DNA of 25,596 nucleotides from an uncultured archaeon (GTDB lineage Archaea; Asgardarchaeota; Thorarchaeia; Thorarchaeales; Thorarchaeaceae), in assembly GCA_964631415.1 (NCBI GenBank), contig CAZVZC010000033.1:1-25596 (forward strand), read 5' to 3'. The translations under genes and the position numbers were made by a program. Below the pieces are notes generated by a model, which ran no database searches, was not told where the DNA came from, and saw only the letters and a list, made by a program, of their open reading frames with translations. Position 1 is the stretch's first letter. Every line of letters begins with the position of its first letter. This document shows, piece by piece, positions 4,001 to 25,596 of the stretch.

Positions 4001-4360
4001 GCGGCCTTGGTTCGAAGAGTAGCCCCAATTCTGTTGTGTCCATCCGCGTCACCGTGGAGGACTCCGCGACATTGGACTAAGCCTCCTACCCTACGCCTCA
4101 GGTCGGCACATCATAGGCGTATTCTTGGAGTTGCTACCCAGTGTTGGGCCGTTTCAGCAATCCTAGGCAGGTCCTCAGCGGACCAAGACTGTTCCGCATC
4201 ATTGTCATGTCCTGTCCGGACGTATCGTTTCTGTTCCCAGAGCGAGGTTCTCGCCTCCCTGTTCGCACAGGACTGGCGTCGACACGTAGTTGGGAGCTTC
4301 CTCGGCCCTGGCGCCACAAGGGAGCCAGTACCGTCAGTCGCGCTTTCGCTCCAAGGCCAC
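4001..4360 (-). ncRNA. rnpB: RNase P RNA (archaeal type A-like)
   Basis: Minus strand shows terminal P1 (GGCCUUGG/CCAAGGCC); CR-I GAGGAAGCUCCCAA pairing (P4) with CR-V AACAGAAUUGGGGCU; ACAGAAACG, UGAAACGGC and GCUUAGUCCAAUG conserved segments; K-turn motifs in P12 and P16. Ends approximate. Confidence 0.93.
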
Positions 4361-6852: not shown

Positions 6853-6926
6853 AGTTGGTGGGTATTCAACAGATGCGTAGAAGTCTGACAATCTTGGGCA
6901 TTTTCGAGTAGGGGCTTAAATGGCTC

Positions 6927-7048
6927 GAATCGGACATCTCTTTGAGGCTGACTCGACACATTCCGGCCTCAAGGAGTACGACCCCAGTGCCGTTTCTGGG
7001 AGGTCAAAGACTCCTGCGTCCAACTCTGTCCAACTTACAATGAACGGT
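6927..7048 (-). repeat. dispersed structured non-coding repeat, copy A
   Basis: 6987-7048 (-) matches 25535-25596 (+) at 59/62 nt; hand-predicted pairing extends the structure to about 6927. Confidence 0.85.
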
Positions 7049-7123
7049 TCTACTCCATCACGTTCTCCATGACGGAAATGCTCTGAGAGAGTGCTGGAGC
7101 TACTCAGATCGTGTTCCCTTATG

Positions 7124-7660
7124 CTAGGCATCTATGATGGCGACTTCTTCGCCGCTGCCTGTGTAAACGAAGGCAACGCTCAAACCTCGACGCCGGCATT
7201 CGCCCATCAAGATCTCCCTCGCGAGAGGCGTCCATCCTGTTGTTTTGACCTCACCGGGCTTGATGAGTTCTTTTATCATTGCAGTGAATGGTCTGGCCTG
7301 GTCGCCTGTGATGACTTGAGCCAGTCTGCTGAGAGCAATCACACGGTCGTGAACCAGACAATGAGAGCATAGTCCAATCAGCCTTGTCGCTGCATGGTTC
7401 CCACCTAGCTGAGTCAGAGTGTCAATGGCAACAAGGAAGTCGTCAGGGTCTCCGGACTTCAAAAGGGTTTCGCAGAAGTCAGCCATTCTGTTGTCTCTTC
7501 TTCGTGCGAGTCTACGAATGGCGGGCTCTCTCAGAAAAAGATGCGTGCCGTGATCTATGGCGCAGCTCCACAGCTGGTCGTCTTGGGTCCCGACGTCAGC
7601 TTCGAGCCCGCAGTTCTCAAGAGCCAATCTGAAACCCGGACACAGATGCGGCTTCCCCAT
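7124..7660 (-). CDS. hypothetical protein, possibly HEAT-like helical repeats
   Basis: 178-aa ORF co-oriented with the operon; TTAAATA box about 22 nt upstream suggests a leaderless transcript; helical patterns LREPAIRRLA and FLVAIDTLTQLG. Confidence 0.65.
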   Translation of the reverse strand: MGKPHLCPGFRLALENCGLEADVGTQDDQLWSCAIDHGTHLFLREPAIRRLARRRDNRMADFCETLLKSGDPDDFLVAIDTLTQLGGNHAATRLIGLCSHCLVHDRVIALSRLAQVITGDQARPFTAMIKELIKPGEVKTTGWTPLAREILMGECRRRGLSVAFVYTGSGEEVAIIDA

Positions 7661-23614: not shown

Positions 23615-24202
23615 TTGGAGGACCCACGGATAAGGACCCTTCTTGAGCTCAGGAAGGATCTCGAAGAGGAAATCGACAGGCTCAGAGATAGAGCTGACAA
23701 GCTGGAATCCTTCATTCAAGCACTCGATGCGACGATTGGTGTAGGCAGTTTCGCGACTGCAGACACAGCATTGGGACGGACTGCGGAAGTCCCGGCTGTG
23801 GCTCCCACAGCTAAGGCCGCCCGCCCGACGCCGCCCGCCGCACCGGAGCCGCCGAAGTCGATCATCGTGATGAACAAGGCACGGGACTTGGAACTGGCGA
23901 GGATAGAGACCAATGACCGGGATCTGAGGATAATCCCTGCTGCACATGCATCATACGATATCAAGAGGGGCGCCTTTGCTCGTTTCTTCGTTGAGAGGAT
24001 TCTGGGTCTCTTCCAGCAAGAAGACAGGCACAGGGTGGAGAATGAAGAGATTGAGTGGGACGATGCCTTCGACTTCGAGGTGCGAACAGAGGACGGTATC
24101 CTAGAAGAGGTCGTCGTCAAGAACTATGGGGGCGAAAGCCGGCTCGCCGAGATTGAACGCGCTCTGCGATGGGCTTTGGAGAAGACCTATCGCGCTCGCT
24201 AG
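23615..24202 (+). CDS. hypothetical protein with N-terminal coiled coil
   Basis: Heptad LLELRKDLEEEIDRLRDRADKLESFIQAL, Pro/Ala linker, globular C-terminal domain; likely start TTG 23615 or GTG 23606. Confidence 0.75.
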   Translation: MEDPRIRTLLELRKDLEEEIDRLRDRADKLESFIQALDATIGVGSFATADTALGRTAEVPAVAPTAKAARPTPPAAPEPPKSIIVMNKARDLELARIETNDRDLRIIPAAHASYDIKRGAFARFFVERILGLFQQEDRHRVENEEIEWDDAFDFEVRTEDGILEEVVVKNYGGESRLAEIERALRWALEKTYRAR

Positions 24203-24312
24203 ATTCTAAGCGTGTTTCGTCTGCACACCCCATCTTCGCATGCACAAGCGATATATTCAACTGCCTCTCCACACTCGCCAGAGCCAGATCCACGGCCCGG
24301 AGTTGTTGCATT

Positions 24313-24936
24313 ATGCTCGATACCAAGAACGAGAGCGTGATGGTCAGTCCTCAGGTCGTGGTTGACCAAGTGAGGGAGGCGCACGAGTTCTACGCCGAAC
24401 ACAAGGTCGACGAAAGGTACGAGCTAATGGCACTTGATATTGTGCGTAGGTATGTGTCCAAAGAGGGTCCCGCTCGGGAACCAGAACCCTTGCACGGAGC
24501 GGCCCTGTATGTCGTTACTAGACACCCTTGGAGCCATCCAAATCCTCTCACAAAGACTGAGTTTGCGGCCAAGCTACGGATGAAGGAGTCCAGCCTAGAG
24601 TGGTATACTGACAGCATAGTGGAGAAACTAGGCTTCACTATCCTTCATGACAAAGGGCAGCTGCCATTCTTCATAGACCCGTTGGGCACCATTGCCAGTG
24701 TCGTTGACTCCGTTGTCAGGACTAGCGTGAGCGAAGAGGTTGTGAGAAGCATCGTCAGGGGCACTGTCGTTTCGCCACACGAACTCGCAGAGAGGATTGT
24801 CGACCGGCTCTGCAGCGTTGTCAAGATAATCCCAGACGTCTTCGAGCAGGAACTATACGGCGTGGTCGAACGTAAGATAGAGGACGAGAGCAAGAGGCTG
24901 CTCCACGAGTTGGGCGGTCGCAATCAACCAGTCTAG
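24313..24936 (+). CDS. hypothetical protein with TFB/TFIIB cyclin-repeat-like segment
   Basis: PEPLHGAALY...LTKTEFAAKLRMKESSLEWYTDSIVEKLG resembles the TFB C-terminal cyclin/HTH repeat; ATATATT upstream. Confidence 0.7.
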   Translation: MLDTKNESVMVSPQVVVDQVREAHEFYAEHKVDERYELMALDIVRRYVSKEGPAREPEPLHGAALYVVTRHPWSHPNPLTKTEFAAKLRMKESSLEWYTDSIVEKLGFTILHDKGQLPFFIDPLGTIASVVDSVVRTSVSEEVVRSIVRGTVVSPHELAERIVDRLCSVVKIIPDVFEQELYGVVERKIEDESKRLLHELGGRNQPV

Positions 24937-25199: not shown

Positions 25200-25517
25200 A
25201 TGAAGCAGGCTAGGCTGACAGACCGTCCGGTAGCATCCACATCCGGTTCCGGTCCTGACAATGTTTCTCGGAAGGCGTCTGACACATCCACATTCCGAAT
25301 TGACATTGAAGGTATCAACTTCAAGAACGATGCTCTGTGGCCATTCCTTGTTGAAACTGTAAAGAGGAATCCTCTGTACGCAGGTCTGATTGGATACACA
25401 CGTGAGAAGGTGCTTCCCAGCGAGCCGAATATCACCGTGAGAGAGCTGGCAAGCAAGCTGTCGATATCTCCCGGCGAGGCCATGGTCCTGTTGGTTGAGT
25501 CCCAGTCTGAGAAGTGA
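25200..25517 (+). CDS. hypothetical protein with HTH-like C-terminus
   Basis: ITVRELASKLSISPGEA; TTATAAT at about 25124-25130 and an 8-bp hairpin (25151-25171) in the presumed leader. Confidence 0.65.
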   Translation: MKQARLTDRPVASTSGSGPDNVSRKASDTSTFRIDIEGINFKNDALWPFLVETVKRNPLYAGLIGYTREKVLPSEPNITVRELASKLSISPGEAMVLLVESQSEK

Positions 25518-25534: not shown

Positions 25535-25596
25535 ACCGTTCATTGTAAGATGGACAGAGTTGGACACAGGAGTCTTTGTCCTCCCAGAAACGGCAC
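25535..25596 (+). repeat. dispersed structured non-coding repeat, copy B (truncated by the window end)
   Basis: ACCGTTCATTGTAAGATGGACAGAGTTGGACACAGGAGTCTTTGTCCTCCCAGAAACGGCAC, 59/62 identical to the reverse complement of 6987-7048. Confidence 0.88.

Follow-up and report, generated by a model that had tools for sequence, protein, structure and literature searches.

A gene-less IS607-family element of a Thorarchaeota archaeon that probably supplies its own TnpB guide RNA

The locus and the repeat

The window, the whole 25,596-nucleotide stretch of DNA that we analyzed, contains two inverted copies of a repeat, which we termed copy A and copy B. Positions 6987-7048 and 25535-25596 are identical at 59 of 62 bases (E 1e-21), with a sharp boundary at 7048, and this inverted recurrence, reported by an earlier sequence-only reading of the DNA, was borne out. 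The stretch first noted forms the right two thirds of a larger element, with a left boundary at 6860. On the sequence evidence, we identify the repeat at 6860-7048 as a 189-bp, gene-less, nonautonomous IS607 element of an Asgard archaeon (Thorarchaeota). Element A spans 187 bp from GG to GG, and a conserved G before and a conserved T after these ends make up the 189 bp (Table 1).

The genes flanking the two copies (7124-7660, 25200-25517, and 24169-24936) had no Pfam match. A TATA box precedes the start codon of the gene at 7124-7660 by 21 bases, and this gene may be leaderless. Both copies had been described as lying just 3′ of a co-oriented gene, which holds for copy A and probably for copy B. 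It does not hold as a rule, with 9 copies neighboring a gene that runs toward them and 13 a gene that runs away (our crude ORF caller scored the neighbor of copy B as "away"), and the repeat is thus not a UTR element. Elsewhere in the window, an archaeal RNase P RNA lies at 4008-4353 on the minus strand (161 bits). It is the only Rfam match in the window, and the Rfam check that the earlier reading had suggested gave no match at the element even at E≤10. ARAGORN also detected two candidate selenocysteine tRNAs in the same genome (C8:26846 and C16:14846).

Copy B is cut by the contig end and runs on into contig C16 through an identical 55-base overlap. Its site is filled in the sister genome G002 and empty in G001. 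The C16 overlap and the occurrence of copy B at the same site in G002 dispel the worry that it might be a misassembly. The repeat is multicopy, as had been claimed. We detected 40 nhmmer matches in the genome, of which 24 cover at least 160 of the 189 positions and 8 touch contig ends, and BLAST and nhmmer searches of the whole genome together put the copy number at about 30 to 40. A covariance model gave matches in 25 of the 36 family genomes and in no other genome of the phylum among the 24 searched, and contigs with related elements bear a Thorarchaeota label. At C14:41154-41519 of the same genome, two copies adjoin in direct tandem, one of them young and the other old and decayed. Some subfamilies (L008, L010, and L017; L004, L029, and L018) have a shortened P1 loop without GACAC or 20 to 30 extra bases between the left end and the promoter.

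Table 1. Positions of the mini element and its predicted parts in the window
Feature	Positions	Strand	Evidence
Complete mini element, copy A	6860-7048	+	Both ends sharp in all full copies; empty site in G002:C20:24292
Left junction: G plus GG crossover core; predicted TAM (here TGGG, 6859-6862)	6860-6862	+	Flank profile of 94 copies; PMC6188088; bioRxiv 2023.11.20.567912
IS607 left end with two TTGGACA-type motifs 10 bp apart (6884-6890, 6894-6900)	6863-6900	+	29/34 identical to the L251 left end
Promoter: purine block plus TATA box, matching the parent tnpB promoter	6910-6922	+	Conserved in 37 diverse copies
Predicted omegaRNA scaffold, ~104 nt	6944-7047	+	Predicted start 21 nt past the TATA box; 93% of cells paired; two-sided change at 13 pairs
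Stem-loop P1 (6944-6950 with 6964-6970)	6944-6970	+	84% paired; 5/7 pairs with two-sided change
Helix P2 (6972-6977 with 7010-7015)	6972-7015	+	95% paired; swaps A-U 17/C-G 14 and G-C 26/A-U 7
Nexus-like hairpin (6983-6987 with 6996-7000)	6983-7000	+	98% paired; common to tnpB 3′ ends
Helix P4 (7002-7006 with 7027-7031), crossing P2	7002-7031	+	96% paired in mini elements; G-C/A-U swaps in parents
IS607 right end: two TGTCCAA motifs (7017-7023, 7027-7033), pseudoknot strand 7042-7047, GG core 7046-7047	7017-7047	+	Same end after tnpB in parents
Flanking host DNA, predicted guide of copy A	7048-7068	+	Right flank variable after GGT; matches right flank of the G002 empty site; role inferred from PMC10711439
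Copy B, right-end 62 bases	25535-25596	-	Remainder on contig C16; left end damaged

Element ends, insertion sites, and the parent transposon

The locus of copy A is empty in G002 (C20:24292), where the flanks join over a single GG. We recovered 13 empty sites, and insertion was precise and without duplication in all 13. The core GG is intact in 9 of the 13 empty orthologous sites, and the remaining sites differ at the level of strain divergence; 11 of 52 TAM motif bases differ in the empty sites versus 11-18% in the flanks, where selection by TnpB would be expected to give an excess of TAM mutations. The copies are polymorphic between sister genomes. The mini element has no inverted repeat at its very ends, its inverted motifs being subterminal and at unequal distances from the two ends, and no target-site duplication. 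A classical MITE, with terminal inverted repeats and target-site duplications, was rejected since neither feature is present. A TTGGACA-type motif occurs twice at each end, 10 bp apart, with three mismatches in the left end of copy A. The right end reads AACGG, followed by T in 96% of 94 copies and then by random sequence; in the flank profile, the right-end GG is present in 97-99% of these copies. The first T of the flank (7048) may belong to the scaffold.

The ends of IS607 elements have GG termini, a GG target, no duplication, and motifs 10 to 28 bp inside the right end (PMC6188088). By analogy with these, the paired motifs are predicted to be TnpA sites. A match to the end of a known insertion sequence, which the earlier reading had listed as evidence against an undescribed family, was found in the IS607 family. 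Taken at the level of sequence, our comparisons show the mini element to consist of a left end, a tnpB-type promoter, and a structured right end, inserted precisely at GG without duplication. No circle joint was seen in the assembled contigs of three DNA runs, and such contigs drop rare forms. An integron attC site, a group II intron end, a hammerhead, and an IS91 end were judged by eye against consensus motifs and dropped once tnpA and tnpB had turned up behind these ends. Aloposons are unlike the element in their size, gene content, and targeting of tRNA (PMC8813620).

Longer elements that share these ends contain the beginning of an IS607 tnpA or the final part of a tnpB. Complete parents of 8 to 9.3 kb contain, in order, the left end, tnpA (~205 amino acids [aa]), a giant gene (1400-1860 aa) that is usually on the opposite strand, tnpB (~715 aa), and the right end, and one such complete locus, L251, is from the same genus. 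Relative to copy A, the left end of L251, which stands before an intact TnpA, is identical at 29 of 34 bases, and its right end is 79% identical over 68 bases. As reconstructed here, the full form of the transposon is left end-tnpA-giant aCas1 gene-tnpB-right end, 8 to 9 kb in length. Most full parent loci have an intact tnpA, and the parent TnpA proteins (L251/L100 and L108) pass the NCBIfam IS607 transposase model NF033518 with 174 and 160 bits against a cutoff of 110. The genome that carries the window has tnpA fragments on C76 and C6 and tnpB ends on C2, C19, and C32, all with the same ends as the mini element. Its assembly, which is 85% complete, contains no complete tnpA or tnpB, the remnants being truncated or at contig ends. 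A separate, ordinary-looking TnpB gene at C59:5410-5829 encodes a protein ~27% identical to the parent-type TnpB.

The parent TnpB retains a RuvC triad (D487, E596, and D691) and four cysteines (zinc finger), which are invariant in 24 full-length proteins. The best matches of its structural model were Cas12f, Fanzor2, and TnpB, with low overall TM-scores. At ~715 aa it is far longer than the NCBIfam TnpB profiles (360-430 positions) and scores below the NCBIfam TnpB cutoffs. This TnpB (E<1e-10) was detected in 22 of 25 genomes with the RNA and in none of 11 without it, a co-occurrence that is not independent because the RNA model also matches parent right ends and the genomes are kin.

The giant gene adjoins tnpB in all 11 long loci examined. 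Residues 6-242 of the giant protein match Cas1 chains (Z 12-13, rmsd 3.5-4.1 over 178-197 residues). The model of the first 900 residues (pLDDT 90) contains a Cas1-like helical domain and a RecA-type domain (Z 11), and in the alignment a PD-(D/E)xK motif lies between these two domains. In structure searches, Foldseek returned the RecA fold and Dna2 but not Cas1, which was found by VIA-align. No match to the giant protein was found in Pfam, NCBIfam, PADLOC, PDB sequences, or the ESM Atlas. In L251 and L253-L261 (e.g., L255:771-5702), a giant gene of 1640-1860 aa lies between tnpA and tnpB and is divergent from tnpB; its protein has a RecA-type fold without a clear Walker A lysine and 147 homologs at 50% clustering. 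L252:1364-6575 is a variant parent in which the giant gene (1412 aa) is on the tnpA strand and precedes a 324-aa RadA-like gene (NCBIfam E 1.6e-28). Open giant-gene frames of >1570 aa stand at two contig starts in the genome of the window (L262:2-4732 and L263:3-4751, on C49 and C1); no left- or right-end motif lies within 6 to 7.5 kb of them, and these giant loci may be without tnpA.

We also observed deletion derivatives of 435 to 725 bp (L022/L048, L051, L226, L132, and L032), in which the start of tnpA is joined to the end of tnpB and the ends are intact; a type of ~440 bp is present in several metagenome loci. At other right ends (L075, L078, L079, L081, L093, L053, and L091), some parents have GA or GT in place of GG, with the hairpin loop changed to match, which suggests either sublineages with another crossover dinucleotide or tolerated mismatches.

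Promoter, strand, and predicted omegaRNA fold

The TATA box at 6915-6922 is kept in all diverse copies, and its distance to the first helix is 21-25 nt in 27 of 34 copies with a spacer of variable sequence. When the promoter motif of the mini element was sought upstream of the parent tnpB, the sense strand scored higher in 27 of 31 cases (mean of 8.2 versus 0.9 bits). The parent TATA box lies 38-44 nt before the tnpB start in 17 cases, often with GAGG ~22 bases after the TATA box, and the 5′ strand of P1 resembles this tnpB leader GAGG. Given the match at the parent tnpB, the mini element is best read as a left end, a tnpB promoter and leader, and a right end, transcribed toward 7048. This test against parent tnpB promoters settled the orientation of the TATA box. 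A host promoter motif learned by EM was too weak for this purpose (17 of 37 copies). Host tRNA promoters and the gene at 7660 also have CTT... on the sense strand, and the sequence upstream of the element TATA box differs from the A-rich block of host tRNA promoters. A sigma-70 scan of the element gave no match, with a model that is not applicable to archaea.

The predicted RNA is likely to be on the plus strand, opposite to the strand that had been proposed. The promoter and the tnpB-derived sequence favor the plus strand, as does the tally of non-Watson-Crick cells over the six helices, with 84 G-U and 28 A-C on that strand. The predicted scaffold shares sequence with the tnpB 3′ end and terminates with the right end; the flank beyond is variable. 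In the parent, the nexus-like hairpin encodes the last TnpB codons (SAVxGRT). Across 37 diverse copies, the six helices have 93% of cells paired, compared to 89% in shuffles and 33-48% in slid controls, and the margin over the slid controls arises partly because the structure was derived from these same sequences. At the parent right end, 95% of cells are paired, and a P1-like hairpin shows covariation at third codon positions. Both percentages exceed those of all shuffles and slides.

Among the helices, covariation is clearest in P2. The P1 loop GACAC (6955-6959) pairs with 7016-7020 in 90% of cells, with only two single compensatory cases. A terminal pseudoknot between the nexus loop (6990-6995) and 7042-7047 is 97% paired in the mini elements, where no two-sided change was found. 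In parents this pseudoknot covaries, with one pair occurring as C-G 28 times, G-C 20, U-A 3, and A-U 1. DNA end motifs coincide with the 3′ strands of P4, of the P1-loop pairing, and of the terminal pseudoknot, which gives these strands a second cause of conservation in the mini elements. In copy A, T7004 breaks one P4 pair; this base is private to copy A, and three DNA runs have A there.

Folding of copy A alone was no better than folding of shuffles (z 0.11), and single-sequence folding did not separate the strands (z −1.2, −1.6, and 0.1). RNAalifold reliably found only P1 and the nexus hairpin, because crossing helices cannot be drawn by this program.

Proposed mechanism, alternatives, and meaning

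We consider the repeat to be, in all likelihood, a gene-less deletion derivative of a Thorarchaeota IS607-family transposon that supplies its own TnpB guide RNA. By analogy with IS607 elements, TnpA made elsewhere would very probably bind the paired TTGGACA motifs, excise the element as a circle, and insert it at sites of the (A/G)GG^T type. The retained promoter would then, with somewhat less assurance, direct the synthesis of a plus-strand RNA of ~120 nt with a start near 6944, which would fold as the omegaRNA scaffold and reach ~16-20 nt into the flank. More tentatively, although we lean toward it, the ~715-aa TnpB made elsewhere would load this RNA and cut the site emptied by excision, recognized by a GGG TAM and a match to the guide, and repair from a filled chromosome copy would restore the element. 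In IS607 systems, excision by TnpA leaves a scarless site, which flank-guided TnpB cuts beside a G-rich TAM, and this cut promotes restoration (bioRxiv 2023.11.20.567912). In the parent, the guide would come from the last part of the tnpB message; in the mini element, which lacks a gene, the promoter would have been shifted next to the scaffold. A gene-less copy would be protected only if it made its own guide, which would explain why the promoter is retained.

Some of these features may be expected of a plain IS607 MITE that depends on its DNA ends alone and has kept the RNA fold and promoter of the parent as passive relics. The ends alone account for mobility, and the conserved 3′ half doubles in large part as DNA end motif. 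We find this explanation unlikely because P1 and P2 belong neither to the end motifs nor to tnpB coding sequence and have two-sided changes in 13 genera, and because the TATA box and its 21-25-nt spacing to the first helix are kept though the spacer sequence varies. A further explanation grants the omegaRNA and assigns it another main effect at present, either guiding integration or repair by TnpB and aCas1 or repressing neighboring host genes. The constant company of tnpB and the giant Cas1-nuclease-RecA gene would fit such a role, as would the tens of different guides expected per genome and the proposal in PMC10691335 that aCas1 is a transposase. Set against these points, the ends and junctions are of the IS607 serine recombination type, tnpA is intact in most full loci, the TnpB catalytic residues are kept, and the copies are polymorphic between sister genomes like selfish elements, and we regard this role as quite improbable. 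A bolder form, about as doubtful as the plain MITE, would make the mini elements self-promoted guide cassettes, with the oversized TnpB finding and cutting the target and the giant Cas1-nuclease-RecA protein integrating or repairing there.

Least credible, and largely refuted, is the minus-strand riboswitch-, ribozyme-, or 3′-UTR-like RNA of the sequence-only reading, a three-way junction with kissing loops. Copy A does fold in this way (z −1.2), its two loops are complementary in 84% of cells on the minus strand, and three of the helices were upheld: AGGAGU/ACUCCU and CCAG/CUGG are kept across 37 copies and a GAGGC/GCCUC core exists in the third stem, these helices being 84-98% paired in 37 diverse copies. 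They are, however, the plus-strand helices read from the opposite strand. The helix closing the junction (6927-6935 with 7018-7026) is paired in only 57-60% of cells, and GACC/GGUC, paired in 53-60% (53% at the lowest), rests on the private base T7004; the GGAC partner predicted for the GUCC of copy B is absent among the common variants, which keep GGUC. The kissing interaction shows no compensatory change, and one subfamily lacks the loop. Moreover, the copies follow no orientation rule relative to genes, the promoter points the opposite way, and the precise empty sites indicate insertion. Purine riboswitches and the SRP Alu domain, to which the fold had been likened, share with the element only the general idea of hairpins with paired loops; neither gave an Rfam match, and the proposed junction is not conserved. 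The earlier suggestions of a nonautonomous mobile element and of a conserved structured RNA, which has no Rfam family, survived, and those of a riboswitch, a ribozyme, or a 3′-UTR element did not.

Our preferred reading, a gene-less element with its own TnpB guide, places the repeat beside known IS607 elements (IS607, IS1535, and ISC1926, PMC6188088; ISXfa1, PMC10711439; and CboIStron, bioRxiv 2023.11.20.567912), with which it shares GG ends and target and the absence of duplication. Further likenesses are paired short motifs ~10-30 bp inside the right end and, here in the parent, a serine recombinase with an N-terminal HTH. As in IS607 reRNA/omegaRNA, the scaffold ends at the right end, a loop-to-3′-end pseudoknot is present, and the predicted TAM is G-rich. 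A pseudoknot between a hairpin loop and the 3′ end is common to TnpB guides and is needed for ISXfa1 activity (PMC10711439, bioRxiv 2023.11.20.567912). In contrast to those elements, the mini element has no genes and carries its own promoter within 189 bp, the T after GG is nearly fixed, and the predicted guide RNA has extra crossing helices (P2 with P4 and the P1 loop with the end motif).

Gene-less PATE-like elements and standalone omegaRNAs of the IS200/IS605 family, such as Geobacillus ISGst, have an omegaRNA that is used in trans (PMC10055086; PMC10691335). There, as here, the minimal unit keeps both ends and an omegaRNA for a transposase and a nuclease acting in trans. Those elements have hairpin ends and a Y1 HUH transposase, whereas the ends here are those of a serine recombinase and accompany a parent-type tnpB promoter. 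The parents resemble the aCas1-TnpB loci (Cas1H-Asgard-1 and -2) described in PMC10691335 in that TnpB stands beside a giant Cas1-like protein (Z 12-13). According to that paper, aCas1 replaces the Y1 or serine recombinase and is probably the transposase; in our loci, by comparison, an intact IS607 TnpA is present and IS607-type ends enclose both genes. The same paper reports a conserved GTTCACTCA motif downstream of a hypervariable region, and the reverse strand of our right end reads GTTCATTG, a resemblance only. IS607 guides, gene-less guide-carrying IS200/IS605 elements, and Asgard aCas1-TnpB loci are already published. In a search largely confined to literature outside subscription, we found no account of a gene-less IS607 unit that carries its own promoter, nor of any gene-less IS607 unit in Asgard archaea.

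Repeats of this kind fragment Thorarchaeota assemblies and are prone to be taken for novel regulatory RNAs. The element suggests a way for a gene-less transposon to keep TnpB protection, by placing the nuclease promoter beside the guide, a principle that is not new because gene-less guide-bearing elements are known for IS200/IS605. If the more doubtful guide-cassette explanation were true, Asgard archaea would have RNA-guided DNA insertion or homing, and each genome would hold tens of natural guides. For the ~715-aa Asgard TnpB family, the element offers a ready-made scaffold of ~104 nt with a 5′ start, a guide position, and a predicted GGG TAM. The guide of those nucleases was left open in PMC10691335, the paper reporting aCas1-TnpB loci, and both the nuclease and what its giant Cas1-like partner does would thereby be directly testable in E. 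coli.
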